Origin: Chloroflexota bacterium
Lineage (GTDB): Bacteria; Chloroflexota; Anaerolineae; JAAEKA01
Direction: 5' to 3'
Assembly: GCA_034717495.1 (NCBI GenBank)
Contig: JAYELL010000025.1
Location: 25,900-89,899, forward strand
Length of the DNA stretch: 64,000 nucleotides
Every line of letters starts with the position of its first letter. The stretch's first letter is position 1. The notes beneath the pieces were generated by a model. The model was given only the letters and a program-made list of their open reading frames with translations, made no database searches and was not told where the DNA came from. Positions 34,400-58,855 of the stretch are shown here, in pieces. The translations under genes were made by a program, and so were the position numbers.

Positions 34400-36574
34400 T
34401 TAATCAACTGCTTCCAGTAGCTTCGCTGCTTCCCAGGCCACCAGCCCACCCTCCAGAACCATCACGTTCTCGTAGCCCTCGCTTCGTAGTTTCTGGGCTG
34501 CCCGGGTACTGCGACGGCCAGTTTGGCACGTCAGCACGACCGGACGATCCGACGGGATTTCGACCCCGTTCATCAAAATCTGGGGCAACGGCAGAAGCTC
34601 AGCCTGGGGAACATGTGCTCGACGGTACTCCCTCGGTTCCCTTACGTCCAGGACCAGGGGTGGACCCTCGCTGCTCAGCTCTTTCCACAGATCCGCGGGA
34701 GCGATGGTGGGAATCGAGCTAGCGGGAACAGCGGTGTGGAGCGCAGGATCCACCGGCAGCGTGCGTTTCGGGAGGTTTTGGCATTCTTTGAAGACCCGAA
34801 CCTCACATTCATAGATACATATGGCAGGATCCAACACCTTATGGAAAAGGTATCCCAGGGCTCCATCCTCATCCAGGATATGGTCCGTTCCAACCATGTC
34901 AATGAAATCGACCGATTCCATCAACTCCAGTACCGGTTCTCTAACTCGAACGAAGAAGACATCGCCGCCCATATCCCGGTAGATGCGCACGACATTTTCC
35001 AGCATGTGAATGCCGCTGATATCGATCTCGTTCACGCTGTGCATGCGGAGGACGAGATAGCGCTGACCAGGATGGGCGTCCAGATTCTCGATAATCGCAT
35101 CCTCTATGTTGTTGGCTGCGCCAAAATAGATGTCGCCCATGATCTCCAGCATACCCAGTTGAGGGCAGGCAGGTCGTGCTTCGCTTCCGGAACTACTGAC
35201 CTCCTCAACCATGTGCTGATAGCTCTCATCGGGCACGACCGAGCGAACCTGGGGTACACTTGTGCGCCAAAGGTAGAAGGCCAGGGACATCAGGATGCCT
35301 GTTAAAACGGCAAATTGAAGGGGAAGCAACAGGGTCGCAAGCAGGGTCGCAAGCATTATGATCTTGTCCCCCTGGGTGCCTTGCCAGATGCGACTGATCT
35401 CAGCGCGATCGATCATACCCAACGCTGTCACGATCAAGACAGCTGCCAGCGCTGTGCGGGGCACATAGGTGGCCATCGGAGCCACCGCCAGCATGATGAC
35501 CATGACAAGAAGCCCGGAGATTACTGAAGCCACCTGTGAGCGCGCCCCTGACTCGAAGTTTACGGCGGAACGGGTGAATGAACCAGAACATGGATAGCCA
35601 GAAAAGAAACCGCACGCGATATTGGCGAGACCCTGCCCGATGAACTCCTGATTGCTGTCCAATCGCTGCCCGGTCTGGCTGGCGATAGAGCGCGAGATGG
35701 ACATAGCTTCAATCAAACCGATAACCGACACGGCCAGCGCACCGGTTGAGAGATCGGCGATCAACTCAAAATTAAAGATCGGCGGAACAGCGAACTGCGG
35801 CAACGTGCGTGGCAATTCGCCCAGCACCCTGACTCCTTGTTGGTCCGCACCCGATAGGGCCACGACCACTGAGGCCGCTATCATGCCGAGCAGGGGTGCC
35901 GGCAGCTTGGGCCAGAATCGTCGTATCAACAGGATCAAGATCAGCGTGCCGATACCCAGGAGGATGGTCTGGGCATGCGTTTCTGGCAGGTGGATGATAA
36001 TTGCCCCGGAGGTCGTGATCAGGCTGGGAGAACTGGGAATATTCAGGCCCAACAGGTGACTCAGCTGACTGACACAGATTAGTATTCCCGCACCGGCAGT
36101 AAAGCCAACAACCACGGAATCTGACACAAAGTTTACGAGAACGCCAAGCCCTGCCAGGCCCATCACGAGGCGAAAGACCCCTATCATGACCGCCATCAGG
36201 GCCGCTGCCGCCACATATTCCTGCGGTCCGGCCACGGCGAGAGGCAGCAAGACCGAAAGAGCCAACAAGGACGATGTGTTGGTGGGGCCTGTATGGAGTT
36301 GATGGGATGACCCCCAGAGCGCGCCGACGATAGCTGCGACGACGGCTGTGTACAGGCCGACTTGTGGTGGCAAGTCGGCAACCAGCGCAAATACGATGGC
36401 TTGTGGCACCAACACCACAGCCACCGTTAAACCAGCGATGAAATCGGGGCGAAAATTGCTGCGATCGTATGATCGGAGGATACGAGCGGGTTGGAAAAAG
36501 AAGGAGGACGCCTTGCCCAGACTTGCCAGGAGCGACTTATCCAGAGGTCGGCGCTGGGCCACACTACCTTCCAC
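34400..36574 (-). CDS. SulP-family anion transporter fused to STAS and C-terminal rhodanese domains
   Basis: SulP TM core, STAS region (YLVLRMHSVNEIDISGIHMLENV), rhodanese (LVLDVREPREY...LTCQTGRRS active-site Cys loop). Confidence 0.8.
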   Translation of the reverse strand: MEGSVAQRRPLDKSLLASLGKASSFFFQPARILRSYDRSNFRPDFIAGLTVAVVLVPQAIVFALVADLPPQVGLYTAVVAAIVGALWGSSHQLHTGPTNTSSLLALSVLLPLAVAGPQEYVAAAALMAVMIGVFRLVMGLAGLGVLVNFVSDSVVVGFTAGAGILICVSQLSHLLGLNIPSSPSLITTSGAIIIHLPETHAQTILLGIGTLILILLIRRFWPKLPAPLLGMIAASVVVALSGADQQGVRVLGELPRTLPQFAVPPIFNFELIADLSTGALAVSVIGLIEAMSISRSIASQTGQRLDSNQEFIGQGLANIACGFFSGYPCSGSFTRSAVNFESGARSQVASVISGLLVMVIMLAVAPMATYVPRTALAAVLIVTALGMIDRAEISRIWQGTQGDKIIMLATLLATLLLPLQFAVLTGILMSLAFYLWRTSVPQVRSVVPDESYQHMVEEVSSSGSEARPACPQLGMLEIMGDIYFGAANNIEDAIIENLDAHPGQRYLVLRMHSVNEIDISGIHMLENVVRIYRDMGGDVFFVRVREPVLELMESVDFIDMVGTDHILDEDGALGYLFHKVLDPAICIYECEVRVFKECQNLPKRTLPVDPALHTAVPASSIPTIAPADLWKELSSEGPPLVLDVREPREYRRAHVPQAELLPLPQILMNGVEIPSDRPVVLTCQTGRRSTRAAQKLRSEGYENVMVLEGGLVAWEAAKLLEAVD

Positions 36575-36817: not shown

Positions 36818-37009
36818 TGAGCAAATTGTAACACAAGGCTTGTGAAATGGGAAGGGTTGAAACCTTGACAAACAGGATGGTTCGATCTAGAATTGCCTCG
36901 CGAGCGAAGGCTCGCATCAGGGTTCCTGATGGCTCTGCCCATCTAGCCACGTTGCAGCCACTGTGAGGGCAATGTCACTGGAAAGTCCTCGTCCCGCATC
37001 GTCCGGTTC

Positions 37010-37798
37010 ATGGTCGTCCAGTTTATTATGTCGGTTAATACATCACCCAGATCTAACAATGTTCAGCAAGAGAACCAGCCTCCTGGTCAAATGCGTGCCA
37101 GCGGCGGTGCTTTGCCTAACCTGCTGCTCTACGTAAATCGTCAGGCGAGCAACCCTTTGCGATATGCTTGGGAACAGGCGATCATGGCACTGATCGGCTG
37201 GATTCCCACGGTTGTGGGGGTTGCATTGCGCTCCGCCCTTTACCGGTTTATTCTGCGCATGGACGGTGTGGCTGCTGTCGAAAACAGTGTGCGGCTGCGT
37301 TTTGCCAGCAATATCAGGTTGGGTGACGGTGTCTATCTGGATCAGGGCAGCTATCTGCATGCAACCCCTGGCGGAATCGAGATTGGTAGCGGTAGTTTCG
37401 TCATGCACGGGGCTGTTTTGCATGTCTACAATTTTCGTGCTTTGCCCCACGCCTTTATTCGTATTGGCGAGGATAGTCTGATTGGCGAATACTGTGTGTT
37501 GCGAGGGCAGGGCGGCATCTCCATTGGTGATCGGGTCTATTTTGCCCCTCAGGTTCAGGTGTTGGCGGTGAATCACAACTACGACGATCCGAAAAGACCG
37601 ATGGTAGATCAGGGCCTCACCGCGGACGGAATTGTGATCGAGGACGATGTTTGGATCGGAGCCGGTGCTATCATCACCGATGGCGTGCATATCGGCAAGC
37701 GTTCAATCGTTGCGGCTGGAGCCGTGGTTACCTCGGACGTGCCGGACCGAACTGTAGTGGGTGGTGTGCCAGCCCGCCCTTTGAAGACCCTGTCCTGA
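37010..37798 (+). CDS. left-handed beta-helix (hexapeptide-repeat) O-acetyltransferase, WcaF/NeuD-like
   Basis: Hexapeptide repeats ([13 protein letters not shown]...[27 protein letters not shown]). Confidence 0.8.
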
Positions 37799-37859
37799 TG
37801 TCGCGAATGGATTATCCACGCACACTGTGCAAAAAAAAGAAGAAATGGGAGATTTCTCC

Positions 37860-39062
37860 ATGACAACACTTTCCGTCGTCATTCCGGCTCTTAACGAAGA
37901 AGACGGCATTGCGGAAATAATGGCGCGGGTGCTGGCGGTTGGTTCCGACCTGGCGTCCATGGGCGTCGATGATCTGGAGTTGATCGTGGTAGATGACGGT
38001 TCCACCGACCGCACCGCTGAGATCGTGGAATCCACACCGGGCGTAAAGCTTGTGCAGCATCCGGTGAACAAAGGTTATGGTGCCGCTCTGAAATCGGGTT
38101 TTCGTTCAGCCGAAGGTGAGTTTTTGGGCTTTCTTGATGCTGATGGCACCTATCCGCCCGAGTATTTCCCTCAGTTGTGCCAGGTTTTGCTGCAAAATGG
38201 CAACGATATTGTCGTGGGGTCGAGAATGGCTGGCGCTGACAGCGATATGCCAATGACCCGCCGTATCGGCAATACCGTTTTTGCCAGCATGATCAGTATT
38301 CTCAGCCGTCAACGGATCACTGATAGCGCCAGCGGTATGCGGGTTTTCCGTCGAGAGGCCCTTGAGAAGCTCTATCCGCTGCCCGATGGCCTCAACTTCA
38401 CACCGATCATGAGTACTCGCGCCCTTCACGAGGATATTCACATGGTGGAGGTGCCGATTCCCTACAGCGAGCGAGTGGGCGATTCCAAGCTTAGCGTCGT
38501 ACGGGATGGAACTCGCTACGTCCAGACCATTACCTGGACGGCGATGAACTACAATCCTGTGCGAATTTTGGGTGGCCTGGGTCTTATTGCACTGGGCCTG
38601 GCAGGCGTGATCGCACTGGTCACCTTCGTTGCCCGGCTTAGCGGGGTGACTGAGGTCGGTCCTATTGGAGCGTTTGCCCTGTTTTCGATGATGATATTGG
38701 CAATGACCGGAGTCAGTCTCTTCAACCTGGGGGCAACTTTCAATTATCTCGTGTCTCTATTTCACCATCGCCCCGTCAAGCAGGGGTTGTTCGGTAAGCC
38801 GATTTTTGATCCATCCCTGGATCGCCATTTTTGGTGGATGGGATTGCTCTTGGGCGTTGCCGGGCTTTTGCTGGGCGTTGCGAGTCTGATTATGGCGCTC
38901 AACGGCTGGCCCGCGGGCAAGATGTGGTTTTACTACCTTCTCAGCGCTGTACTCTTTCTCTTGGGACTCCAGTTTGTCATGTCGTGGATTCTGATGCGGG
39001 TTCTCGAGGAGTTGAGTGAGCGTGATGCGCTGGCAGCTAAGGACCTTGGTACCAAGTTTTAG
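37860..39062 (+). CDS. GT2 polyprenyl-phosphate sugar synthase (DPM1/GtrB-like) with C-terminal TM anchor
   Basis: LSVVIPALNEE, VVDDGSTDRT, DAD motifs; 4 C-terminal TM helices as in GtrB/ArnC. Confidence 0.8.
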   Translation: MTTLSVVIPALNEEDGIAEIMARVLAVGSDLASMGVDDLELIVVDDGSTDRTAEIVESTPGVKLVQHPVNKGYGAALKSGFRSAEGEFLGFLDADGTYPPEYFPQLCQVLLQNGNDIVVGSRMAGADSDMPMTRRIGNTVFASMISILSRQRITDSASGMRVFRREALEKLYPLPDGLNFTPIMSTRALHEDIHMVEVPIPYSERVGDSKLSVVRDGTRYVQTITWTAMNYNPVRILGGLGLIALGLAGVIALVTFVARLSGVTEVGPIGAFALFSMMILAMTGVSLFNLGATFNYLVSLFHHRPVKQGLFGKPIFDPSLDRHFWWMGLLLGVAGLLLGVASLIMALNGWPAGKMWFYYLLSAVLFLLGLQFVMSWILMRVLEELSERDALAAKDLGTKF

Positions 39063-39105
39063 TGTTTGAGGGGATAACGTCTGAGGTGAAAGTGGAGAGT
39101 TCGAT

Positions 39106-40815
39106 ATGACTGAAAAAGACCAACTGAAGCGCAATCTGGGTACTCGCCGGATGCCTGCACTGCGCCCGTCCAGTTTTCCTGATGCCGGTGCCATCGTGGA
39201 GACACTGACCTCGTCAGCACGTCCCCCGGTCGGTGTAGATATTCTGCTCGTCAACCCACCATCACCCGATGGTGGGATATGGATCCGCAGCCAGCATCGG
39301 GTAGGCCGACGCAGCCGGGAGAACATGATATGGCCTCAGATCGGTCTTGCTCAAATGGCTGCCTTGTTGGCCCCAGACTATACTGTCGAGGTCGTTGATG
39401 CCATCGCGAGCAGGATGTCCTGGCAGGAATTCGAACGTTTGCTGGAAGAAAAATATCCCAGGTATTACCTTACTCAGGTTACGGCGCCGACGTTGCGCAA
39501 CGATATGTATGGTGTCTTTCTGGCCAAATCCTTGGGGTCTCAGACGATTGCGTTCGGAACCCACGTCACGCCCATGACCCTCGAGACCATGCGCCCTTTT
39601 CCTGCGCTGGACTTCATTCTGCGCGGCGAACCGGAGGCCACACTACGCGAACTACTGGATACTTTGCAGGATCAGGAACCCAGTGACCCTCACGTCGCCA
39701 AGATGGTGGAAGACACCAGGTTGGCCAGAGGCACCACGGCACGCAAGACCAGGGACAGCGACCTGGAGCTGCAGTTGTCACCGTTCGCGCCTGCCACACT
39801 TGAACGAATAGGGAAGGCAACGACGGCATCGGCCATGGAGTCGCCGCTTGCCGGTATTCTGGGCCTTGCATGGCGGTATGATAATGAGATCATAATCAAC
39901 CGGGATCGCCCCTTTTTTCCCGATCTGGACGATCTGCCCATGCCACTGCACCATCTGTTGCCATATGAAAAGCAGCATATGCCGATGCTGAAGGGCCCAT
40001 TTACGTTCATCGTGACCAGCCGCGGCTGCCCTGCAGGTTGTAAATATTGCATCAAACATGTGTCGTACCAGAACAGCGTTCGCCTGCGCTCGCCAGAGAA
40101 GCTATACGAAGAACTGGTTATCCTTTCAGAACTGGGGATTCACAATGTTCATATGTACGCCGATCTGTTCACGGTCAGCCGCGAGCAAGTTGTAACTTTG
40201 TGCAATCTCATCATCGAAAATGGCTTGAAGGTGACCTGGACCTGCAACAGCCGTGTCGACTTCGTTGACGCGGAAATGTTGCAACTGATGGGGCAAGCCG
40301 GGTGCTTCATGATTTCCTGGGGAATCGAAAGCGCCAATGAGGAGATATTGAAACGGGCTCGCAAGGGCTATCGCAAGGAACAGGCCTACGATGCACTTGT
40401 GTGGGCCAGAGAAGCCGGAATCAAGAATTGGGGCTATTTCATCATTGGACTGCCCGGTGAAACCGAGGAGTCGATCCAGGAAACGATCACGTACAGCAAA
40501 ATGCTGCCCCTTGACATCGCCCTGTTCCACATTGCGGCACCCTATCCTGGCACCCCTTTCTTCTACGATGTGGTGGAGAATGGTTGGTTTCGACCGGGTA
40601 CCAAGTGGGAGGAGGTCGACATGGATCAGTCTACCGTGCTCGACTATAGTAATCTGTCGGCTGAAAGGCTCGAGTATTGGCAGAAGCGTGCCACGCGGGA
40701 ATGGTCCTTCAGGCCGGGCCCGATGTGGACCTTTGTTAAAGGCCTCAATAGCTGGGAGGGGTTCAAGAGCGCCATGAGTATCGGCGTTCAGACGCTTAAG
40801 TACGTATGGAGCTAG
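39106..40815 (+). CDS. B12-binding domain radical SAM enzyme
   Basis: N-terminal cobalamin-binding-like domain (ILLVNPP...), radical SAM CxxxCxxC (TSRGCPAGCKYC); stop 2 nt before next gene. Confidence 0.8.
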   Translation: MTEKDQLKRNLGTRRMPALRPSSFPDAGAIVETLTSSARPPVGVDILLVNPPSPDGGIWIRSQHRVGRRSRENMIWPQIGLAQMAALLAPDYTVEVVDAIASRMSWQEFERLLEEKYPRYYLTQVTAPTLRNDMYGVFLAKSLGSQTIAFGTHVTPMTLETMRPFPALDFILRGEPEATLRELLDTLQDQEPSDPHVAKMVEDTRLARGTTARKTRDSDLELQLSPFAPATLERIGKATTASAMESPLAGILGLAWRYDNEIIINRDRPFFPDLDDLPMPLHHLLPYEKQHMPMLKGPFTFIVTSRGCPAGCKYCIKHVSYQNSVRLRSPEKLYEELVILSELGIHNVHMYADLFTVSREQVVTLCNLIIENGLKVTWTCNSRVDFVDAEMLQLMGQAGCFMISWGIESANEEILKRARKGYRKEQAYDALVWAREAGIKNWGYFIIGLPGETEESIQETITYSKMLPLDIALFHIAAPYPGTPFFYDVVENGWFRPGTKWEEVDMDQSTVLDYSNLSAERLEYWQKRATREWSFRPGPMWTFVKGLNSWEGFKSAMSIGVQTLKYVWS

Positions 40816-40816
40816 C

Positions 40817-42526
40817 TTGAGTCATCAATACGGCGATCCAACCCTGGGCGATGGCGTTGGGCCACACTCGCCGGTCACTCTCTTTCGGCCACTGCCACTG
40901 CTCATTTCGGGGGGCTTGATCATTAGCGCTTTGATAGGTGTTTGGGCAGCCTACGACCGGGAACAAGCCTGGATGCGGTTCTCGCTCATCTCCATCGGTG
41001 TGGCACTGATGCTCGGCATTGCCTGGATGGGTTGGCGGGGACGAATGGATATACTGGGCATCTTTGGCCTGCTCTGTGCACTGCTTGGGGCAGCAATCGG
41101 TGCCTATTTCCTTCTGACCTTCGACTGGGCGGGCAATCAGGGAAAATTTGCGCCGATCCAAGCGGCAGGCCTCTGGCTTCAGGTCCATCGCCCCGCAATC
41201 CCGGTTCCCGAGGATATCAACGCCAATGTGGCTGGTAGCAGTCTGGCGATTCTTCTTCCACTGGGGGCTGTGGGCCTTTTCTGGGGATGGAGTCGCGACA
41301 AGCGTACCGTGGCGATCATCGCTGCCCTGTCGTTGCTCTTCGGGTTTCTGATTCTATTCCTGACGCAGTCCCGAGCAGCCTGGCTCGGACTGGCAGCCGG
41401 CCTGGCTGTGGCCCTCTACCTGGCAGTGCGACCAGGCCTGGAAAACTTCCCGCGCCGGCGTCTGCTGTTGGACCTGGTTGCTTTGGCAGGGGGGCTTCTT
41501 GTCCTTGTCCTCTTCTGGCTGGTGGCATCGAGCCCCACTCTTGCCGAATCGTTGGGCTCGATCGGCGTTGGTGTCAGCCTCACCAATCGCGCCGAGCTCT
41601 GGCGCGACGGGATGAACCTGGTAGCAGATTACCCCTTCACGGGCAGCGGCCTGGGCAGCACCATGATGGTCTACTCCACCTATGGACGGTTGTTGCATGT
41701 CGGATTTATCACCCATATGCACAATCTGTTCTTGCAGATCACCATCGAGCAGGGAATACCCGGGCTTCTTTTTTTTCTGCTGTTGCTTGTCCTGGCCTGG
41801 TGGAGTCTGCTAAGCGCCTACCGGTCGGGTGAAAACCGCTGCTTCTGCGTACCGGTGGCAGCATCCTTGGTCGCCCTGGTGGTGCAAGGCCTTGTCGACG
41901 TTGGTATTTATGCCAGCTACGCGCTTCCGGTTCTTTTCTTGCCCATCGGGTTTGCACTGGCCCTGGGGCAGCCACCCAGGGTACTCCGGCGAAGCAAGAA
42001 TGTCACCCTGGCACTGACGAGTGTATCGATCATCGTCGTGGCAATGTGTGTAGTGTTGATTGTACCTTCCAGTCAGGCTGCATTGCAAGCCAATCTGGGC
42101 GCCGTTGCCCAAACACAGCGGGAACTCTCCGCTTACAGCTGGCCCGAGTGGCCCATTCAGGATGCCCTCAGGCGCTCACCTGATATTGACCTGTCAGCTG
42201 CAATTGCCCGATACAAAGCAGCACTTGATCGTGATCCAAAGAATGCAACCGGCAACCGGCGACTGGGGCAGATTGAGCTTTCAAGAGGCAGGTATGAAGC
42301 GGCCCGATGGTACCTGGAAGCAGCGTATGCGACATCACCTCGTCAATCGGTGACCCGGCATCTGCTGGGCGAGGTATATGCCATCGATGGCGATCTGGAC
42401 CTGGCAACGTCCTTTCTTCGCAGCGTCGACATCGGCCATGGCCAGTTTCAGACCAGGGTATGGTGGTACGAAACTGTCGGCGAGACTGAAGGAGCTCAGC
42501 GGTTACGGGAAGCTGGCGGGTTTTGA
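40817..42526 (+). CDS. WaaL/O-antigen-ligase-family (Wzy_C) membrane protein with C-terminal TPR domain
   Basis: ~11 TM with LTQSRAAWLGLAAGLAVALYL Wzy_C block; C-terminal soluble TPR-like repeats. Confidence 0.7.
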   Translation: MSHQYGDPTLGDGVGPHSPVTLFRPLPLLISGGLIISALIGVWAAYDREQAWMRFSLISIGVALMLGIAWMGWRGRMDILGIFGLLCALLGAAIGAYFLLTFDWAGNQGKFAPIQAAGLWLQVHRPAIPVPEDINANVAGSSLAILLPLGAVGLFWGWSRDKRTVAIIAALSLLFGFLILFLTQSRAAWLGLAAGLAVALYLAVRPGLENFPRRRLLLDLVALAGGLLVLVLFWLVASSPTLAESLGSIGVGVSLTNRAELWRDGMNLVADYPFTGSGLGSTMMVYSTYGRLLHVGFITHMHNLFLQITIEQGIPGLLFFLLLLVLAWWSLLSAYRSGENRCFCVPVAASLVALVVQGLVDVGIYASYALPVLFLPIGFALALGQPPRVLRRSKNVTLALTSVSIIVVAMCVVLIVPSSQAALQANLGAVAQTQRELSAYSWPEWPIQDALRRSPDIDLSAAIARYKAALDRDPKNATGNRRLGQIELSRGRYEAARWYLEAAYATSPRQSVTRHLLGEVYAIDGDLDLATSFLRSVDIGHGQFQTRVWWYETVGETEGAQRLREAGGF

Positions 42527-42626
42527 CATCGGCATGGCCCTGGAATTTGATCATTTTGGCATTGGAGACTATCATGAGGGTTCGTGATGTATCTAGCATC
42601 TTGTGATGGCGAAAAAACTACTGGCT

Positions 42627-42656
42627 TTCGCAAGCGACCTGGTGGGTTGCTAACAT
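42627..42656 (+). promoter_or_regulatory. candidate promoter TTCGCA-N18-TAACAT abutting sulfotransferase ATG (leaderless start?)
   Basis: -10 hexamer ends 1 nt before ATG 42657; no SD. Confidence 0.3.
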
Positions 42657-43307
42657 ATGAAAAAACTATTCAGAAACCTTAGAAAATCCAAGCCTTCCTT
42701 GCCTGTGATCGTCGTTTCCGGTTTGCCTCGATCTGGAACGTCGATGATGATGAAAATGTTGGAAGCAGGTGGCCTGACGGTGGTAACCGACCAGATTCGT
42801 ACCGCGGACGAGGATAATCCAAAGGGATACTATGAGTTCGAACGGGTAAAACAGCTTGATAAGGGTGATACATCATGGGTATCCGACGCGCAGGGAAAAG
42901 TGGTCAAAGTAATCTCGGCCTTGTTGGAACACCTGCCACCTGACTATGACTACAACGTAATCTTCCTGCAGCGCAGTATCGAGGAAGTTTTGGCATCCCA
43001 GAAGAGAATGCTGGAACGTCGCGGGGAACCAACCGATCGGGTAAGTGATGAGGAGATGGCCCGCTTGTTTGCCAAGCACACTCAGAAAGTGGATCTGTGG
43101 TTAAACAGTCAGCCGAATATCTCAGTTCTCTATGTAGATTACAACGAGGTGGTGAGTAACCCCCATCAATCCGTAGGTCAGGCGAATCGATTCCTGGGCG
43201 GGCATTTGGATGAGCAAGCGATGATCTCAGCTGTCGATCCTCAACTCTATCGAAATCGGGCAAACCTGAACCAAATCTCAACTCGAGAAGACTCATTGTC
43301 AAAATGA
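42657..43307 (+). CDS. sulfotransferase-family protein (Sulfotransfer_3-like)
   Basis: 5'-PSB-like VVSGLPRSGTSMM near N-terminus, later RSIEEV.. 3'-PB-like block; soluble 216 aa; stop overlaps next start (ATGA). Confidence 0.6.
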   Translation: MKKLFRNLRKSKPSLPVIVVSGLPRSGTSMMMKMLEAGGLTVVTDQIRTADEDNPKGYYEFERVKQLDKGDTSWVSDAQGKVVKVISALLEHLPPDYDYNVIFLQRSIEEVLASQKRMLERRGEPTDRVSDEEMARLFAKHTQKVDLWLNSQPNISVLYVDYNEVVSNPHQSVGQANRFLGGHLDEQAMISAVDPQLYRNRANLNQISTREDSLSK

Positions 43308-43696
43308 ACCAACAGCTTCTGTCGTCATTGTGGCTGATCCTGGTGTCCACGATAGCTGGGGTAGCCGGTCAGGTTTCGCTCAAGCTGGGCATGAGCCAGC
43401 CGGGCGCTGAGGAGACGGTCTCAGAGGGTGTGTTGTCTCTGATAGCTTTGATTCTGCGCACTCCCCTGGTGTGGCTCGGACTGATGTTTTACGGGATAGG
43501 AGCGCTTGCCTGGATCGCCGTCTTGTCTCGTCTGGATCTTAGCGTGGCATACCCCTTTCTTGCCTTAAACTTTGTGTTGATTACTATCATATCCCGCCTG
43601 TTCCTTGGCGAGACTGTGCCCCTCCTTCGATGGGCAGGGATCGGTGTAATCGTAGTTGGTATTCTTCTGGTGGCGCGCAGCACTACGGCGTCATAA
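43304..43696 (+). CDS. 4-TM SMR/EamA-like flippase subunit (ArnE/ArnF/GtrA-like)
   Basis: 130 aa, 4 TM, EamA-like signature (LALNFVLITIISRLFLGE). Confidence 0.6.
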   Translation: MNQQLLSSLWLILVSTIAGVAGQVSLKLGMSQPGAEETVSEGVLSLIALILRTPLVWLGLMFYGIGALAWIAVLSRLDLSVAYPFLALNFVLITIISRLFLGETVPLLRWAGIGVIVVGILLVARSTTAS

Positions 43697-45233
43697 AAAC
43701 AAAGTGCACGAATCGCTTAGAAAACGCCACAACCGCTCCAAAGCTGGTACTTTGGTTTCCCTTTGTCTGCTGCTGGCAATTGCCGTGCCCTGGCTGGCTG
43801 GCACTGCCAAGGTATCGGCTGACCAACCAGTGATCTGGTCCAAACCGGTCAACTTATCCCAATCGGACGAGAGCTCGGTTCACCCGGCCATTGTCGCCGA
43901 CAGCATGGGGAATATCCACCTCTTTTGGAGTGAAGAGGTGGGTGGGGAACCGATGCTGCAGGACGAAATGGCCCGGCCTGGTAATACGATCCTCTATACT
44001 CGCTGGGACGGCCAATCATGGATCGAACCAAGGGATGTTCTGTACGTGCGGGGTGAATACCTTGGTGACTATGTTTCGGTCGCAATCGATGACAACAACC
44101 GGCTCCATGCAGTGTGGACGGGACTGGATAACATTTACTACAGTTCGGCGCCGGCGGCTGTAGCTGAGACAGCCCAGTCGTGGAGCAAACCGGTGGTGGT
44201 TGGAACCGGCAGCGCCCGCTCCGCCTTCGAGTCTGCTGTTGCTGTTGATTCACAAGGTGTTATTCATGTTGCCTATGGCGCCCGACGCGATGTGCCGGGA
44301 GTCAACTACGTGCAATCGAGCAACGGCGGCGAGACCTGGTCGGCGCCAGTGACATTGTCACTTCCCCTGGATCGTTTGGAGAGTGGCTATTCGCAGGTGC
44401 GCTTGGTGGTAGACAGTGCAGACCGAATCCATGCTACCTGGACAACCTTCCAGAGACAAGGCTTTGGCCAAGGTGTCTATCATAGTCGCAGCACAGATGG
44501 TGGTCTTACATGGAATACGCCCTACCGGCTCGCTTATCGAGAGGATGACGATATTTTCGTGGAGTGGCCCTATCTCACCGAGTTTGCCGACCAGGAACTG
44601 CGTGTGATCTTCACCGATGGTGATGGCAAGGGCCGGTTGCAGCGCATATCGACCGACGGGGGCGAAACCTGGGGTGAACCAACGGTCATCCTGACCGAAT
44701 TGGAAGGCATTAACGGCTATATCATTTCTCTGCTCGATGCCGCCGAGCAACCCCACTTGATCGCAAACATGCGTACCCGGTCTGACGGCACCGTCGGCCT
44801 GTTTTATGCCCCCGGCGCCGGGGGAGGCTGGCAACCGACTGTTCCGATCGCAACCGATCTACCCTACGGCCCCTCATCACACTATCCTGCAGCCGCCGTT
44901 CGCCTGGGCAATGAGATACACATCGTGTGGACCCAGTTGCGACGGGGTGAGATATGGCATATGAAGGGGGAGGTCTCCGGGGTTGAACCTCTTCCGGTGA
45001 TGGAGAGGCTTCCGCCACAAGAAGTTGTGCAGCCATCGCCTACGATTAGCATCTCTACACCAACCCCAGAACCGCTGGAAACGGTGGCACCATCCCGGGA
45101 GCGGGGCGTTGCCGGGCCGACGCCCGCGCCCGTTGCACCGCCATCGCCGCTCGGCGCAGTGCTACCCGGTATAACACTTTCGCTGCTCCTGGTGCTTGGT
45201 GTGATCGTTTGGAAGGGTGTTCGCGCCAGATAG
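43656..45233 (+). CDS. BNR/Asp-box repeat (sialidase-fold) exported protein with C-terminal TM anchor
   Basis: Asp-box repeats SNGGETWSAP, STDGGLTWNTP, STDGGETWGEP; signal peptide; C-terminal hydrophobic anchor; true start likely downstream of 43696 (non-ATG). Confidence 0.65.
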   Translation: MVFFWWRAALRRHKNKVHESLRKRHNRSKAGTLVSLCLLLAIAVPWLAGTAKVSADQPVIWSKPVNLSQSDESSVHPAIVADSMGNIHLFWSEEVGGEPMLQDEMARPGNTILYTRWDGQSWIEPRDVLYVRGEYLGDYVSVAIDDNNRLHAVWTGLDNIYYSSAPAAVAETAQSWSKPVVVGTGSARSAFESAVAVDSQGVIHVAYGARRDVPGVNYVQSSNGGETWSAPVTLSLPLDRLESGYSQVRLVVDSADRIHATWTTFQRQGFGQGVYHSRSTDGGLTWNTPYRLAYREDDDIFVEWPYLTEFADQELRVIFTDGDGKGRLQRISTDGGETWGEPTVILTELEGINGYIISLLDAAEQPHLIANMRTRSDGTVGLFYAPGAGGGWQPTVPIATDLPYGPSSHYPAAAVRLGNEIHIVWTQLRRGEIWHMKGEVSGVEPLPVMERLPPQEVVQPSPTISISTPTPEPLETVAPSRERGVAGPTPAPVAPPSPLGAVLPGITLSLLLVLGVIVWKGVRAR

Positions 45234-45251: not shown

Positions 45252-46031
45252 ATGCATCATTTCACTGAGCTGTTTGGGTATCGTGACCTGCTCTGGCTAT
45301 GGACCTTGCGAGAAGTCAGGGTACGGTATAAACAATCTTTCCTGGGCGTTGCCTGGGCGATCATTCAACCGCTGGCCCTGACTGTCGTCTTTACCGTCGT
45401 TTTTTCTTTTCTGCTTAAGATCGATACCGGGGATGTGCCCTATCCGGTTTTTGCCTATACTGGACTGGTCCCCTGGACGTTCTTTGCAACCTCGCTGGCT
45501 TTCGGGATTCCCAGCCTTGTCAACAATATGAATCTGGTCACAAAAATCTACTTTCCCCGGGAGATACTGCCCCTTGCCAGTATCGGAGCCGCCTTTGTAG
45601 ATTTTCTGATCGCCTGCGCGATTCTGGCCGGGTTGATGTTGATTTATCGGGTCTTTCCAGGAATCGAGGCCTTGTGGCTCGGCCCGCTGCTCTTGCTGCA
45701 GATCATTCTGAGTATCGGTGTGATTTTGCTGGGCGCTGCGCTCATTGTGTTCTTCCGCGATATTCGTTTCGTCGTACCCTTATTGACGCAGGTCTGGATG
45801 TATGCTACGCCAATCATCTACCCGGTGGATTTCGTACCTGAACAGTTGCGACCCTTCTATTTTCTGAATCCAATGGCCGGTATCATCGACGGATATCGAC
45901 GGGTGCTGATTTATGGTGAGGCGCCCAATATGCAAGCGCTGACATTGGCCACGATAGTGTCCGTGATACTGTTTGTGGTAGGATACCTGGTTTTCAAGCG
46001 AACAGAACCGGTATTTGCGGATATCATATGA
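45252..46031 (+). CDS. wzm: ABC-2 type polysaccharide exporter permease
   Basis: ABC-2 membrane protein (YKQSFLGVAWAIIQP...). Confidence 0.85.
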   Translation: MHHFTELFGYRDLLWLWTLREVRVRYKQSFLGVAWAIIQPLALTVVFTVVFSFLLKIDTGDVPYPVFAYTGLVPWTFFATSLAFGIPSLVNNMNLVTKIYFPREILPLASIGAAFVDFLIACAILAGLMLIYRVFPGIEALWLGPLLLLQIILSIGVILLGAALIVFFRDIRFVVPLLTQVWMYATPIIYPVDFVPEQLRPFYFLNPMAGIIDGYRRVLIYGEAPNMQALTLATIVSVILFVVGYLVFKRTEPVFADII

Positions 46032-47275
46032 CCGATCAACTTCCATTGGGGTCTGTAATTTGTGATAAGGTTTCCAAACGCTATCGACTGGGTGCGTTTG
46101 GATCATTGCGCGGCACGGTGTCATCCCTTTTCGAGCGGCGGAGTGAGGAAGAAGAGGCACAGCGTACTCTGTGGGCATTGCAGGATGTTAGCTTTCGGTT
46201 GCAGCCTGGCGAGTCACTGGGCTTGCTGGGTCCCAATGGTGCCGGAAAGACGACCACCCTGAAGCTCCTGTCGAAGATTACCAGGCCAACATCGGGCAAC
46301 ATTACACTGCTTGGGCGCTCCTCATCCTTAATCGAGTTGGGGGCGGGATTCCATCCGGAACTTACTGGCAAGGAGAATATCTTTCTGAATGGAGCGATTC
46401 TGGGATTGAGTCGCCACGAGATTCAACGGCGTCTTGATGAGATTATTGCATTCTCTGAATTGGAAAGGTTCATCGATACCCCTGTCAAACGTTACTCTTC
46501 AGGCATGTATGTCCGTCTTGGCTTTGCCGTGGCTGCCTACGTCGAGCCGAATGTGCTTCTGGTTGATGAAGTGTTGGCAGTGGGAGATATTAGCTTTCGG
46601 CAGCGCTGCATCAAACGAATGAAGGAGTTGCAGGAATCGGGCACGACAGTTATCTTTGTCTCTCACAACATGCATCTGGTTCGCAACATGTGTCAACGCT
46701 CGTTGCTCCTGGTTCATGGACAGATCCAGTCAGAGGGTCCCACAGATGATGTGATCGCAGACTATGAACGGCTAATCATGGGAACTGCCGAATTGGCGAA
46801 TGACAAGTCCCAGGACAAGGACCAGTCCCAGGTGTTGTCCGATGTCATTGTGCTGAATGTCGACGTAGCTCCCCTGACACCAAACGATAGGAACCTCATC
46901 GATTCGCATCAGTCTGGTGTAGTGACAATTCGTTACCGTACCCAGGCGCCCCGGGAAATCGGGCGTATCGATGTCCGCGTATTACGCGACGATGGCACAC
47001 TGTGTAGTTCACTTGATGCCAGGGCAGCCGCCAAAAACGATCCTCGATTCCGCCACCTGGATCGGGAAGGTTCGTTTGTCTTGACCTTTTCACCCATGCA
47101 GTTGACTTCAGGCACCTATTTCGTGCTCGTTCGTATTACCGACTCATCCGATGCCCTGGTTATCGCATCCGGACAATCCAAGTTATTTCAGGCCTACGCA
47201 GGCGACCTGCCTTCGCCGCCGGGGGTTTTTGTTCCCTCAGTTGCATGGGACGTCGGGAAAGAGAATCGAAGTTAG
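46028..47275 (+). CDS. wzt: polysaccharide exporter ATP-binding protein with C-terminal extension (Wzt)
   Basis: NBD (GPNGAGKTT, YSSGMYVRLGFA, LLVDEVLAVGD) plus ~170-aa beta-rich C-terminal extension. Confidence 0.8.
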   Translation: MTDQLPLGSVICDKVSKRYRLGAFGSLRGTVSSLFERRSEEEEAQRTLWALQDVSFRLQPGESLGLLGPNGAGKTTTLKLLSKITRPTSGNITLLGRSSSLIELGAGFHPELTGKENIFLNGAILGLSRHEIQRRLDEIIAFSELERFIDTPVKRYSSGMYVRLGFAVAAYVEPNVLLVDEVLAVGDISFRQRCIKRMKELQESGTTVIFVSHNMHLVRNMCQRSLLLVHGQIQSEGPTDDVIADYERLIMGTAELANDKSQDKDQSQVLSDVIVLNVDVAPLTPNDRNLIDSHQSGVVTIRYRTQAPREIGRIDVRVLRDDGTLCSSLDARAAAKNDPRFRHLDREGSFVLTFSPMQLTSGTYFVLVRITDSSDALVIASGQSKLFQAYAGDLPSPPGVFVPSVAWDVGKENRS

Positions 47276-47372
47276 TTGAAAATCCACAGCTTCAGGGGAA
47301 AGACTTTTCGTGACCCACGCAGGGTTTCGCGGAGTCTCGAAATCGGACAAACAGTTCCCGGGTGAGAATCGC

Positions 47373-49109
47373 ATGGATATTGGCGCAATAGGTTGGTGGC
47401 ATCACGATAACCACGGTGACTGGGCGATGCTGAATGCCCTGACGCACGCTATGAAGCCACATCGCATCGTGCCGATTGATACCGGCTTTGAGGTCAATGA
47501 GGACACGCTCTATCGTCTAAATCGGCTTGATTTTCTTATCCTTGGCGGTGGCACGTTGATGCGCGAGAGGCCTGTCGAACCCTTTGACCGATTCGATAGT
47601 TGGGGCGAATATCTTACAACTCCTATTGGCATTGCGGGGATGGGTGTCGAGACCGTGGCCCCTAACTATGCAGACGCGATGGGAGCATTGTTGGACAAAA
47701 GTGAGTTCTTCTACGTCCGGGATCAGACCAGCCTGGCGTTGCTGGATCATCCCAAAGCCCGTTATGCTCCCGATCTCACATTTTCTCAGCCGTTGCCAAT
47801 TGCCGGGGCCAGGTCCGTGGTCGAAGGACGATCACCTCTTTGCGGTGTCAATCTTCGTCGGCTTCCCGGGGATGTTTTGACGAACTGGATCGATGTTCTT
47901 CAACAATTGCCGGTGGAGTTTCGGGGCATTTCGCTCTCTTCCCATCCCGAGTTCTCTGAGGGCGGGTTGTTGCGACAACTGGATCCTCAGTATCCGGATG
48001 GCTTTGACCCGCGCTCTTATGCCGATCTTAACCTGATGATTGGCACCGCCTTTCATTCGGTGGTCTACGCCATTCAATCGGCGATCCCCGTGATCGCGAT
48101 CGCCTATGCGCCAAAGGTCCGACGGTTGATGACTGATATCGGTCTCGGCGACTTCGTGCTTGAGCCAACGGAGTGGGACCTCCTGCCCGGGCTGGTACAG
48201 ACGGCCATCGAGAGGCAAGAGGAAATGGCCGAGCGGTTGAGGGAGACCACGACTGAGTTGACTCGGGCCGCCAACGCCAACGCAACAGCGATCAAAGAAC
48301 ATATCGAGGCCGTCGCCCAACCACATGAACGGCTTGGTCCCAGGGTCAGCATCGCCGTTCTGGTAACGGGCAGTGATGAAGAAACCAGGCGAACGATCCA
48401 ATCCTGTTTGGACCAGACCCATGAGAATGTAGAAGTGGTCGTTGTAGCCAATCAAGCTGGTGAGCCAGAGCTCGGAACGGAACATTCTGACCAGATCCGT
48501 ATCATTCGAATGGAACGCGAGTCAGAGGCGGGCGATCTTCTGCAAGCCGGGTTGCTAGAAGCTGACGGTTGCTATGTGACCTGGATCCGCTCCGGGGATC
48601 GTTTCACGCGGGATGCTATTGACTGCATGGTCAGCTGGCTGGAAGCCGATAGCATGTGCGATATGGTCTATTCGGATTATTTCGTGACCGGTGGTCATGA
48701 TCGCATCTTGGATTGGCAAGTAGTACACCCTGCCTACAAACTCTTTCGGCGCAACGTGGTTGGACCCTGTTTCCTGCTGCGGACATCACTTATGTCGGAC
48801 CTTGGCATGCACCATGCTACCTCGCTCTTGCCCGACTATGACTACTGGTTGCGTGCCCAGAACGAGGGTGAGCTCGAACCCCGGCATACCAGGCTCTTTT
48901 ACCGTCACATTTCCAATGGCGCCATCGATGATCCGGTCGAGGAACAGCAGGTGCGACGGGAGTGGATTGCCGGTTTGCCGCTATCGCGTCAAGTAGTGTG
49001 GCGGGTCCGGGATAACAATTTTATCAACCAACAGGTGATTCCCTGGTCGATGGCAGCTGCTCGCAACGTGGCAGGAACACTCAAGCAAAGCCGCAGGGAC
49101 CAGGACTAA
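47373..49109 (+). CDS. fusion protein: polysaccharide pyruvyl transferase (CsaB/WcaK-like) + GT2-like domain
   Basis: N-terminal IGAIGWWHHDNHGDWAMLNAL...ILGGGTL (PS_pyruv_trans); C-terminal VSIAVLVTGSDEE...VEVVVV, DYDYW (GT2-like). Confidence 0.65.
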   Translation: MDIGAIGWWHHDNHGDWAMLNALTHAMKPHRIVPIDTGFEVNEDTLYRLNRLDFLILGGGTLMRERPVEPFDRFDSWGEYLTTPIGIAGMGVETVAPNYADAMGALLDKSEFFYVRDQTSLALLDHPKARYAPDLTFSQPLPIAGARSVVEGRSPLCGVNLRRLPGDVLTNWIDVLQQLPVEFRGISLSSHPEFSEGGLLRQLDPQYPDGFDPRSYADLNLMIGTAFHSVVYAIQSAIPVIAIAYAPKVRRLMTDIGLGDFVLEPTEWDLLPGLVQTAIERQEEMAERLRETTTELTRAANANATAIKEHIEAVAQPHERLGPRVSIAVLVTGSDEETRRTIQSCLDQTHENVEVVVVANQAGEPELGTEHSDQIRIIRMERESEAGDLLQAGLLEADGCYVTWIRSGDRFTRDAIDCMVSWLEADSMCDMVYSDYFVTGGHDRILDWQVVHPAYKLFRRNVVGPCFLLRTSLMSDLGMHHATSLLPDYDYWLRAQNEGELEPRHTRLFYRHISNGAIDDPVEEQQVRREWIAGLPLSRQVVWRVRDNNFINQQVIPWSMAAARNVAGTLKQSRRDQD

Positions 49110-56654: not shown

Positions 56655-58109
56655 ATGAAACAACGACTGAATAGCCAGAATGGAAAAGTAAAAGCGCTGG
56701 CACCCCTGCTTCTCATCATTATTCTCGCAGTATTGTTGAGGGTTGCTGTCGCCTTCTACCTTGGAAACAGCATCGAAGAGGTGCGCGGTGGGACCTTCGA
56801 CCAGATATCCTACGATGCGTTGGCATTGCGAGTGATGGACGGCCACGGTTTCAGCTTTGCCACTGACTCATGGCCGTATGCCAAGGCAAATCAGCCAACT
56901 GCCTTCTGGTCCTATCTCTTCACCCTGTTTCTGGCCGGAATTTACAGCCTGGCCGGCCATGAGCCTCTGGTCGCGCGAATCATCCAGGCTATCCTGGTGG
57001 GCATTGTGATGCCCTGGTTGGTATATCGTATCGGTGCGCGGGTATTTGATCGACGCGTGGGCCTCATAGCGGCCCTGATTGCTGCCATCTACTTCTATTT
57101 CATCAACTATGCAGCCTCGTTGATGACGGAGTCGCTCTATATCGTCGGAATACTGTGGACTATCGATGTGGCAATGCGTTTGGCTATCCAGGCAGAAGGG
57201 TGCAGTGCCGGGGAGTTGACCTGTTCACAAAGGCACATGCTGCGTCTGGGGCTCGAGTTGGGTCTGGCGATGGCTTTCACACTCCTGATGCGTCAAGTGA
57301 TCGTGATTTTCCTTCCAGTGCTCGGCTTGTGGCTACTCTGGATTGCATGGCGACGAAATCAACTCAAGGGCACCATCCTGGCGCTGGCGGTTGCAGCCTT
57401 TGTAACAGCGCTGGCACTTTTGCCTTTCGTGATCCGGAACTACCGGGCCTTTGGTCAGGTAAGCATGCCAAATACCAATGTTGGTTTCAATTTCTTCTGG
57501 AGCAACCACCCCATCTACGGCACAACCTTTGTGCCCGTCATCTATGAGTCCAGCGGTATCACCTACCCGGAATTGATTCCTCCCGAGCTGCGCCATCTCA
57601 ACGAAGCGGAGCTGGACCGTGCCTTGTTGGCCCGTGGAATACAGATCGTGCTGGAGGATCCGACACGCTATCTACAGCTCTCCTTGAGCCGCTTCCCAGT
57701 ATACTTCCTTTTCTGGCCTACCGGGACCTCGTCGACGCTGAGCAACGCGGCCCGGGTTCTCAGTTTTGGCATTTTTCTGCCCTTTATGATTTACGGTTTG
57801 ATCACTGCCTTCTTGCGGGCGAAAATCGGCAAATCGGAACAAGTCGCAGACACCCAGGATCCCGTTTCGATGGCCTGTGCTCATCTTCATTGCGAATTTC
57901 TTGCGCTGCTTGGCGCTTACATGATAGTCTATACGGCCATCCATATTGCGTCGTGGGCAAACGTACGCTACCGGTTACCGGTAGATGTGTTTCTCATCAT
58001 TTTCGCCGCCTATGCCATCGATGACCTCCTGTGGAGAGTGTTGAAGATCGGTTCGGGAAAGCAAAAGCGGCAGAATCCTGACCTTGTTTTTCCGATGGAA
58101 GGCTCATGA
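56655..58109 (+). CDS. GT-C fold glycosyltransferase (GT39/GT83 ArnT/PMT-like)
   Basis: Multi-TM with conserved N-terminal loop (NSIEEVRGGTFDQISYDALALRVMDGHGF). Confidence 0.7.
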   Translation: MKQRLNSQNGKVKALAPLLLIIILAVLLRVAVAFYLGNSIEEVRGGTFDQISYDALALRVMDGHGFSFATDSWPYAKANQPTAFWSYLFTLFLAGIYSLAGHEPLVARIIQAILVGIVMPWLVYRIGARVFDRRVGLIAALIAAIYFYFINYAASLMTESLYIVGILWTIDVAMRLAIQAEGCSAGELTCSQRHMLRLGLELGLAMAFTLLMRQVIVIFLPVLGLWLLWIAWRRNQLKGTILALAVAAFVTALALLPFVIRNYRAFGQVSMPNTNVGFNFFWSNHPIYGTTFVPVIYESSGITYPELIPPELRHLNEAELDRALLARGIQIVLEDPTRYLQLSLSRFPVYFLFWPTGTSSTLSNAARVLSFGIFLPFMIYGLITAFLRAKIGKSEQVADTQDPVSMACAHLHCEFLALLGAYMIVYTAIHIASWANVRYRLPVDVFLIIFAAYAIDDLLWRVLKIGSGKQKRQNPDLVFPMEGS

Positions 58110-58855
58110 ACGCAATGGAATTTGACGAGGTTGCCCTGCAAAAGGTGCGTGAAGATCGACTTCTGATCGACGAGCTCGACCGCTGGCTCTACGACGAGAT
58201 CAGGCCTTTTTTCGGCCAACGGGTTCTCGATGTCGGTTGCGGCCTGGGTAATTTCGCACGGCATTTAACTGCTAAGGACTTATATATTGGCACCGATGTT
58301 TCGCCGGCCAGTGTCGCTGCCGTGAACAAGACCTACGGTGCCTATCCGAATATGCACGCCCAGGTCGCAAACGCTACCGATCCCCGCTTTCGAAAATTCA
58401 AACGATTCGAGATCGACACGGTATTTTCTTTGAACGTGTTTGAACACATAGACGATCATGAGACCGCTCTTGAGAATGTGGCCTATGTTCTGAAACCAGG
58501 TGGTGTATTGATCCTGGTCGTTCCCGCCCACAAGTGGCTTTATGGAAGTATCGATCGCTCCATTGGGCACTACAGGCGCTATGACATGACGTTGCTAGCC
58601 GAAATGTTTCGAGAGGTTGGCATCAATTGTGTCAAACTGAAGTACATCAACGCCCTGGGCGCGGTGGGATGGTTTGCAAATGGGCGTGTTCGCAGGCAGG
58701 ATACACCGCCTTCGGGCCAGTTAAAGCTGTTCAACAAGTTGGTTCCGTTGATCAGGCGATTCGAGAGTCTGGTGCCGGTTCCCTTCGGTATCTCCTTGCT
58801 GGCTGTCGCCAGAAAGGGATCATCATTGGCGCCGGAATTGAACGGCAAATCATGA
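58106..58855 (+). CDS. class I SAM-dependent methyltransferase
   Basis: Motif I VLDVGCGLGNF; stop overlaps next start (ATGA). Confidence 0.8.
   Translation: MNAMEFDEVALQKVREDRLLIDELDRWLYDEIRPFFGQRVLDVGCGLGNFARHLTAKDLYIGTDVSPASVAAVNKTYGAYPNMHAQVANATDPRFRKFKRFEIDTVFSLNVFEHIDDHETALENVAYVLKPGGVLILVVPAHKWLYGSIDRSIGHYRRYDMTLLAEMFREVGINCVKLKYINALGAVGWFANGRVRRQDTPPSGQLKLFNKLVPLIRRFESLVPVPFGISLLAVARKGSSLAPELNGKS

Follow-up and report, generated by a model that had tools for sequence, protein, structure and literature searches.

We analyzed a stretch of 64 000 nt from a Chloroflexota bacterium (contig JAYELL010000025.1, positions 25 900 to 89 899 of the forward strand; this whole 64-kb stretch is called the window in the following), which carries a small sulfotransferase gene in a long, co-oriented and tightly packed run of glycan genes. 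The order of genes in this run is hexapeptide acyltransferase, family 2 glycosyltransferase (GT2), radical SAM enzyme, Wzy_C plus TPR protein, sulfotransferase, EamA protein, BNR protein, Wzm and Wzt. Behind Wzt follow a fusion of a pyruvyl transferase with a GT2, several GT2 and GT4 genes, a second gene of the Wzy_C family, PMT_2, a methyltransferase and Bac_transf (Table 1). An earlier note on this DNA, made from the letters alone, had described a soluble product of 216 aa encoded between a ligase gene with TPR repeats and a flippase subunit, with a stop that overlaps the next gene. We observed the same: the 5' neighbor is the Wzy_C plus TPR gene, the 3' neighbor is an EamA gene with four transmembrane (TM) segments, and stop and start overlap in an ATGA at 43304-43307. 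An in-frame TAA at 42651-42653 shows that the start proposed there, 42627, was placed 30 nt too early. Since the 216-aa protein has no hydrophobic segment (the highest Kyte–Doolittle mean over 19 residues is 0.97), it should be soluble and presumably cytoplasmic. The G+C content of the gene is 0.485, below the 0.51-0.585 of its neighbors. In the 130-nt gap before the gene we found a weak sigma-70-like promoter match, which cannot be taken as evidence of function because the scan around the gene gave 8 sites at this level (9 of 12 consensus positions) and 6.9 are expected by shuffling; a terminator scan of the same surroundings yielded nothing exceeding the shuffle expectation. The public NCBI record already names the product, and a 100% identical entry is called 'sulfotransferase domain-containing protein [Chloroflexota bacterium]'. 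Our results therefore refine and bound an existing annotation and do not discover one.

The gene at 42657-43307 very probably encodes a cytoplasmic sulfotransferase that depends on 3'-phosphoadenosine 5'-phosphosulfate (PAPS) and is predicted to consist of a minimal core of ~200 residues, with an Arg-type 5'-phosphosulfate-binding (5'-PSB) loop as in the tyrosylprotein sulfotransferases (TPSTs). The membership in the sulfotransferase family, already claimed in the earlier note, was confirmed by profiles as well as by structure matches. The profile check against the Sulfotransfer_1 and Sulfotransfer_3 models, which had been proposed there, placed the protein above the cutoff of both: Pfam Sulfotransfer_3 (PF13469) matches with 38.8 bits (E 1.6e-9, cutoff 27) and Sulfotransfer_1 (PF00685) with 34.3 bits (E 2.1e-8, cutoff 22). 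Judged by these profile scores, the match far exceeds chance, and PF13469 and PF00685 are also precomputed for nearly all listed homologues. In the NCBIfam scan no meaningful family was found for the protein; a CheB match was the only one (E 0.016, far under the cutoff).

The motif LPRSGTS, previously read as the 5'-PSB loop, indeed corresponds in alignments to PKSGTT of SULT1A and to PRSGTT of TPST1/2; it occupies residues 23-29, directly after strand beta1 (residues 17-22 in the model), and P[RK]SG[TS][TS] occurs nowhere else in the window when all six frames are translated. The residues G22-S29 (GLPRSGTS), R106 and S114 do not vary among 25 aligned homologues. The latter two confirm the later 3'-phosphate-binding (3'-PB) block that had been suggested, as they line up with the Arg and the Ser that are conserved in the SULT1A stretch '...vvyvaRnpkdvavSy', at a junction from strand (99-105) to helix (108-121) in the model. 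This alignment of the 3'-PB block becomes visible only with a profile. The profile built from the 25 homologues matches SULT1A enzymes with an E-value of 2e-5 and places GLPRSGTS on PKSGTT, whereas a search of the PDB with the single sequence is insufficient and gave only weak matches to the PSB loop of TPSTs (E 0.2). The AlphaFold2 model has a mean predicted local distance difference test score of 84.5, with the loop 40-60 modelled at lower confidence. Using Foldseek, the top 21 matches were sulfotransferases or retinol dehydratase, a SULT homologue that binds 3'-phosphoadenosine 5'-phosphate (PAP). The catalytic base of sulfotransferases is a His in cytosolic SULTs and a Glu in TPST and heparan-sulfate sulfotransferases. 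Candidates among the invariant residues of the alignment are D45, D51, E60, E62 and H141; we infer that one of the four acidic ones, which lie in the conserved loop that connects the 5'-PSB loop to helix 62-69, is the base.

That the protein is instead a P-loop nucleotide or sugar kinase, the outcome that the earlier note had named as speaking against a sulfotransferase, is extremely improbable. The best model of the P-loop-kinase type, AAA_18, reaches 17.7 bits and stays below its cutoff of 29.4, while both sulfotransferase models pass; the Walker A pattern GxxxxGK[ST] was not found in the 216-aa protein, kinases rank under sulfotransferases in both fold searches, and the fusion or adjacency of relatives' genes to adenosine 5'-phosphosulfate (APS) kinase, described below, also argues against this reading. 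Two known sulfotransferase types were rejected as well. Cytosolic SULTs of the SULT1/SULT2 type have a C-terminal GxxGxxK and a full length of ~290 aa; in the 216-aa protein GxxGxxK is not present and the core is too short, with conservation ending near residue 200 and the profile alignment stopping at about SULT residue 230 of 295. A trehalose sulfotransferase of the Stf0 type was rejected at 12.2 bits for PF09037 (cutoff 22, E 0.13).

Next, we considered the supply of PAPS in the relatives of the gene, using 84 non-redundant homologue loci, taken mostly from a collection in which each species is represented by a single genome. In 7 of the 84 species loci the sulfotransferase gene directly adjoins PAPS-synthesis genes, with gaps down to ~10-50 nt. 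The adjoining gene encodes a bifunctional ATP sulfurylase/APS kinase of 572-645 aa in five loci (L018, L038, L049, L070 and L082) and an APS kinase alone in L062; L059 has an ATP sulfurylase together with a gene of the inositol-monophosphatase family, whose product carries a CysQ-like WLVDPLDGT motif. L070 carries a second copy: its Sat-CysC fusion lies upstream of the sulfotransferase and a stand-alone APS kinase downstream. Pfam confirmed the PAPS-synthesis neighbors in L038, L082, L062, L070 and L059. A rough estimate puts the number of loci in which a single-copy gene would lie next to the sulfotransferase by chance at well under one. In addition, both activities occur in one protein, with the sulfotransferase in front of the APS kinase in P0142 and behind it in P0181. 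The adjacency in seven species and the fusion proteins tie the family strongly to PAPS synthesis, and they support PAPS as the likely sulfate donor of the enzyme.

The compact sulfotransferase family is very large and chiefly found in Chloroflexota. In a database clustered at 90% identity all 8000 of the 8000 scored candidates reached E <=0.001, and 1020 clusters at 50% identity reached E <=1e-30. A family copy is present in at least 583 species genomes. Among these thousands of homologues most members are ~200 aa long and 55-75% identical to the query, and they belong mostly to Anaerolineae, Caldilineales, Ardenticatenaceae and Promineifilum, with some in metagenome-assembled genomes (MAGs) labelled as other phyla. 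Copies with 57-73% identity are found in 11 such loci (L012, L052, L060, L061, L065, L066, L068, L069, L074, L081 and L087), the labels being Gammaproteobacteria, Planctomycetaceae, Cytophagia, Bathyarchaeia, Deltaproteobacteria, Nitrospirota, Binatia, Blastocatellia, Thermodesulfobacteriota and Bipolaricaulota; these copies may be due to horizontal transfer or mis-binning. Literature on sulfotransferases with Chloroflexi or Anaerolineae contained no characterization of the compact family that we could find, and in the one relevant metagenome study two Chloroflexi MAGs had no PF13469 match.

Multidomain relatives comprise the arrangements Phosphodiest-TPR-sulfotransferase, sulfotransferase-Sulfatase, TPR-sulfotransferase and thioredoxin-sulfotransferase. 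Fusions to APS kinase, thioredoxin, TPR or alkaline-phosphatase-superfamily domains were seen in P0142, P0181, P0185, P0177, P0182, P0212, P0214 and P0261 and at the loci L059, L062 and L066. Genes of the alkaline-phosphatase superfamily (Phosphodiest, Sulfatase) also lie near the sulfotransferase in ~20 of the 84 loci, and it is possible that such a phosphodiesterase-like partner takes part in PAP/PAPS turnover or acts on the acceptor of the sulfotransferase itself. A further recurrent neighborhood is a DtxR-like regulator with a P-type ATPase block in 13-14 of the 84 loci; in L003, L004 and ~14 other loci the DtxR/MntR-type regulator and the heavy-metal P-type ATPase block precede the sulfotransferase. 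This probably reflects lineage synteny, and no functional link is evident.

The features of the window are listed in Table 1. The SulP-family permease is encoded divergently upstream of the run; its rhodanese domain is C-terminal, and the protein scores 382 bits with TIGR00815 (sulP, cutoff 380.45). Together with the genes for FBPase (glpX) and a GDSL lipase, the permease gene makes up a syntenic backbone that the close relatives conserve. The best sigma-70-like match of the region lies at 36865-36893 on the forward strand (11 of 12 positions, TTGACA-17-TAGAAT), ~115 nt before the acyltransferase gene, and would fit the start of the long co-oriented run; the total of matches is not above the shuffle expectation. 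The GT2 that follows the acyltransferase resembles AglJ, dolichyl-phosphate hexose transferase and ArnC. For the radical SAM enzyme, roles in ribosomally synthesized and post-translationally modified peptides (ApyD-like) or in hopanoids (HpnJ-like) were rejected, as the scores are far below the cutoffs and there is no other support. The BNR protein has TM segments at residues 28-55 and 496-524 and a Pro-rich C-terminal linker, and the called TTG start of its gene overlaps the EamA gene by 41 nt. The NCBIfam models for TagH and galactan Wzt/RfbE match the glycan ABC exporter below cutoff.

Table 1. Positions of the sulfotransferase gene, its motifs and the surrounding features in the window
Feature	Position	Strand	Remarks
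SulP-family permease + STAS + rhodanese	34400..36574	-	724 aa; divergent; Pfam Sulfate_transp, STAS, Rhodanese
Hexapeptide acyltransferase	37010-37798	+	Pfam, NCBIfam
GT2 with C-terminal TM helices, polyprenyl-phosphate-hexose-transferase-like	37827-39062	+	Pfam, NCBIfam, TM segments
Radical SAM enzyme, HpnJ-like	39106-40815	+	Best NCBIfam match HpnJ, 194 bits vs cutoff 578
Wzy_C (O-antigen ligase family) + TPR	40817-42526	+	Pfam
Weak sigma-70-like promoter match	42547..42575	+	9/12 consensus positions; in the 130-nt gap before the sulfotransferase gene
Sulfotransferase gene	42657..43307	+	ATG start, TGA stop; 216 aa, soluble, compact, TPST/Sulfotransfer_3-like
5'-PSB loop LPRSGTS	42723..42743	+	Residues 23-29
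3'-PB block, R106 to S114	42972..42998	+	Strand-to-helix junction (model)
EamA-family protein, ArnE/ArnF-like	43304..43696	+	130 aa, four TM segments; Pfam EamA 29.3 bits
BNR/sialidase-like beta-propeller, membrane-anchored	43656..45233	+	525 aa; Pfam BNR_2 46.3 bits
Wzm, glycan ABC exporter	45252-46031	+	Pfam ABC2_membrane
Wzt with C-terminal extension	46028-47275	+	415 aa; Pfam ABC_tran
Pyruvyl transferase (CsaB-like)-GT2 fusion	47310-49109		Unusual fusion; next gene after Wzt
Methyltransferase	58106-58855		In glycan cluster
Bac_transf sugar transferase	61353-62840		In glycan cluster

To describe the conservation of this neighborhood we defined a close clade of nine non-redundant loci with a sulfotransferase at least 68% identical, which together with a further 77 more distant loci gives a total of 86. 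The sulfotransferase is followed by the EamA gene in all nine close loci and in none of the 77 more distant ones. Sequence matching SulP is found upstream in 7 of the 9: a full-length SulP homologue directly abuts the sulfotransferase-EamA pair in L005, L007, L011 and L090, which represent a minimal layout, it lies upstream of an inserted cassette in L089, and matching sequence is also present in L001 and L010. At the SulP position of L001 the called gene encodes a rhodanese protein of 180 aa. In the close clade the sulfotransferase is thus accompanied by a small ArnE/F-like membrane protein and, in most loci, by a SulP permease. The full layout, with a cassette of four genes between SulP and the sulfotransferase (37010-42526, forward strand, in the window), is seen in the window and in L089, L001, L010 and L014. 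In these four relatives the cassette lies directly upstream of the sulfotransferase with 70-81% identity, except for the Wzy_C/TPR protein, which is 41-50% identical and falls below the match filter in L001. The cassette behaves as one mobile block and is absent from the other close relatives. In L089 the EamA gene is followed by Wzm, BNR and Wzt, the BNR_2 gene lying between Wzm and Wzt. The layout of L012 keeps the pair, while SulP and the cassette are absent and Bac_transf lies directly upstream.

The small EamA family that forms the other half of the pair is conserved at 60-77% identity. With the NCBIfam models the window protein scores 48.1 bits for ArnE (cutoff 92, E 1.2e-12) and 47.1 bits for ArnF (cutoff 99, E 2.9e-12). 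By these scores the resemblance to ArnE/ArnF is real, and the status of an equivalog is not reached.

Taken together, the observations in the window can be arranged into the following scheme. The SulP permease would import sulfate, and a PAPS synthase encoded elsewhere would activate it. The sulfotransferase could then sulfate a sugar that still faces the cytoplasm and is either linked to a polyprenyl-phosphate carrier, charged by the neighboring GT2, or part of the growing glycan, and the small EamA protein or Wzm/Wzt would move the sulfated product outward, in analogy to the Arn-type tailoring of a lipid-linked sugar before flipping. The outcome would be a sulfated cell-envelope glycoconjugate. 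We regard glycan sulfation as plausible and unproven, and the scheme as a whole as having an even chance of being correct; for a glycan or a lipid-linked sugar as acceptor the odds are roughly even, perhaps slightly unfavorable. In the earlier note a sulfated glycan had been suggested on the basis of the embedding of the gene in a glycan cluster. This embedding stands for the window and for four relatives, but it does not extend to the family: homologues of the window's glycan-assembly proteins were detected within 10 kb in 13 of the 86 loci.

Several observations weigh against a sulfated glycoconjugate as the product. The remaining 73 of the 86 loci show no detectable glycan-assembly homologue within 10 kb, and the family as a whole shows no enrichment of glycan genes in its surroundings. 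The pair occurs without the cassette of GT2, radical SAM and Wzy_C genes in five close relatives (L005, L007, L011, L012 and L090), and in L090 we observed no glycan gene within 8 kb downstream of the pair, where PPDK, phosphoribosyltransferase, TIM and SelB genes follow instead. For an enzyme that tailors a variable surface glycan, an identity of 55-75% across hundreds of species is unusually high. Within the window, neither ATP sulfurylase and APS kinase nor CysD and CysQ were found, by motif (P-loop and LDGD for APS kinase, QxRNP and GRDHAG for ATP sulfurylase, the PP-loop of CysD and WxxDPxDGT of CysQ) or by tblastn with the Sat-CysC, APS kinase and CysQ-like proteins of relatives. The permease passes the TIGR00815 cutoff with 1.5 bits to spare, and the substrates of the SulP family include more than sulfate. 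Finally, in three more distant loci (L091-L093) the EamA gene stands alone between thrS-infC-rpmI-rplT-SpoU and phoB/phoR-pst, with neither a sulfotransferase nor a glycosyltransferase near it. Because of these stand-alone loci the pairing of sulfotransferase and EamA may be lineage synteny and no dedicated link to a flippase, which weakens the idea of a dedicated sulfotransferase-flippase pair. The most specific form of the scheme, in which SulP, sulfotransferase and EamA are a dedicated module that makes and then flips a sulfated polyprenyl-phosphate sugar for decoration of an extracytoplasmic envelope polymer, is rated as unlikely.

The most serious alternative keeps the PAPS-dependent sulfotransferase and gives it a conserved acceptor other than a glycan, which could be a small metabolite or a lipid. 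In that case the glycan genes would have been inserted into a backbone of CbiQ, GDSL lipase, FBPase and SulP, followed by the sulfotransferase and EamA, and the EamA protein, as a drug/metabolite transporter, may export the product. We consider this possible, if rather doubtful. The persistence of the pair in L090 and L007, where glycan genes are not adjacent, would be readily explained, as would the 73 loci mentioned above, and an identity this high in at least 583 species is an argument for a single, fixed acceptor. Furthermore, the recurrent partners of the family are PAPS-synthesis genes, Phosphodiest/Sulfatase genes and TPR fusions rather than glycosyltransferases, and the EamA family is listed in some sources under drug/metabolite or EmrE-like transporters. 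However, glycan genes on the same strand flank the pair tightly on both sides both in the window and in L089, with gaps of 16 nt and 4 nt in the latter. Independent glycan settings recur elsewhere, namely in L012 (Bac_transf directly upstream), in L021, L043 and L081 (each with a GT4 gene directly downstream) and in L062 (a Wzz/GNVR tyrosine-kinase gene upstream). Moreover, a gene that makes a candidate small-molecule acceptor is not evident beside the pair.

Two further proposals concern the acceptor more narrowly. The earlier note had also considered that the sulfate might be a cap at the non-reducing end, which stops chain growth and is read by the C-terminal domain of Wzt; this subset of the glycan case gained no support and is very unlikely. 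The extension of Wzt comprises ~165 aa and its C-terminal 166 aa match Wzt_C weakly (E 1.9e-4), and since Wzt_C is matched confidently by the Wzt encoded at the syntenic locus L089, a carbohydrate-binding Wzt is plausible. The match in the window, however, stays at 21.9 bits below the cutoff of 30.4, nothing ties Wzt specifically to sulfate, and Wzm/Wzt is not co-conserved with the sulfotransferase, being absent near it in 5 of the 9 close relatives, namely those that lack the cassette. The cluster also contains more conventional terminal modifiers, the methyltransferase and the pyruvyl transferase-GT2 fusion, and to our knowledge no sulfate cap has been documented on a glycan that depends on an ABC transporter. 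It is highly unlikely, too, that the enzyme is a protein or peptide tyrosine sulfotransferase (TPST- or RaxST-like) acting on a secreted or envelope protein. Its Arg-type 5'-PSB loop PRSGT is that of TPST, and the fusion of family members to TPR protein-interaction repeats would suit such a role, but the identity to TPST is 16-20% with a sequence match confined to the PSB loop, and at none of the loci examined did we observe a candidate substrate peptide or secretion genes.

If the dedicated module of SulP, sulfotransferase and EamA is real, the compact sulfotransferase, often accompanied by a PAPS synthase of its own, would be the marker of a sulfated envelope component that is conserved in Chloroflexota and has so far gone undescribed. 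The more useful result is the family: widespread, compact enzymes of ~200 aa with 55-75% identity in at least 583 species, coupled to PAPS synthesis, are a well-defined biochemical target.

Among the closest known systems are TPST1 and TPST2 (PDB 5wri and 3ap3) and the Pfam family Sulfotransfer_3. The window protein is 16-20% identical to the two TPSTs, is not membrane-anchored and shows no sign of a peptide substrate, and because it is ~80-100 residues shorter it lacks their acceptor-binding elaborations. With regard to the neighborhood, the GT2 with C-terminal TM helices is similar to ArnC, the four-TM EamA protein is similar to ArnE/ArnF, and a PMT_2 glycosyltransferase is present. The Arn pathway comprises the GT2 ArnC, a modification on the lipid carrier, the flippase ArnE/ArnF and ArnT. 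In contrast to that system the GT2 of the window scores 91.8 bits with the ArnC model (cutoff 529) and the EamA protein 48.1 with ArnE (cutoff 92), both far under the equivalog cutoffs; moreover, the window has a single EamA gene and no pair, and members of the EamA family are also found by themselves, at a distance from any GT2. We know of no sulfated lipid-linked sugar donor. The dedicated module, if true, would handle a sulfated sugar in the manner of the Arn pathway, and it would be the first system for a sulfated envelope glycan beyond those of cyanobacteria, rhizobia and mycobacteria.

Carbohydrate sulfotransferases of mycobacteria and rhizobia include Stf0, Stf1 and Stf9 as well as NodH and LpsS. 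The earlier statement that sulfated surface glycans are rare outside these two groups needs to be updated, as cyanobacterial clusters for sulfated exopolysaccharides are established (PMC8205485) and a sulfotransferase-bearing cluster for a sulfated exopolysaccharide has been proposed in Actinoplanes (PMC13390465). Papers from 2021 and 2026 describe bacterial sulfated polysaccharides as so far restricted to cyanobacteria (PMC8205485, PMC13390465), and for this reason a demonstrated sulfated glycan of Chloroflexota would be a modest extension. XssA and XssE are sulfotransferases of the cluster for the exopolysaccharide synechan in Synechocystis PCC 6803, and cyanobacterial sulfotransferases are also reported in clusters of the ABC type (PMC8205485). 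Compared by gene setting, the window resembles the synechan cluster in having a sulfotransferase gene inside a bacterial surface-polysaccharide cluster. The two differ in that the synechan cluster is cyanobacterial and uses the Wzx/Wzy pathway, whereas the cluster in the window has Wzm/Wzt and comes from a different phylum, and in that the link between sulfotransferase and cluster seen in the window is not conserved across the compact family. If its product were shown to be sulfated, the glycan cluster in the window, which is of the ABC-transporter type, has a sulfotransferase built in and comes from an uncultured Chloroflexota bacterium, would widen the cyanobacteria-only picture.

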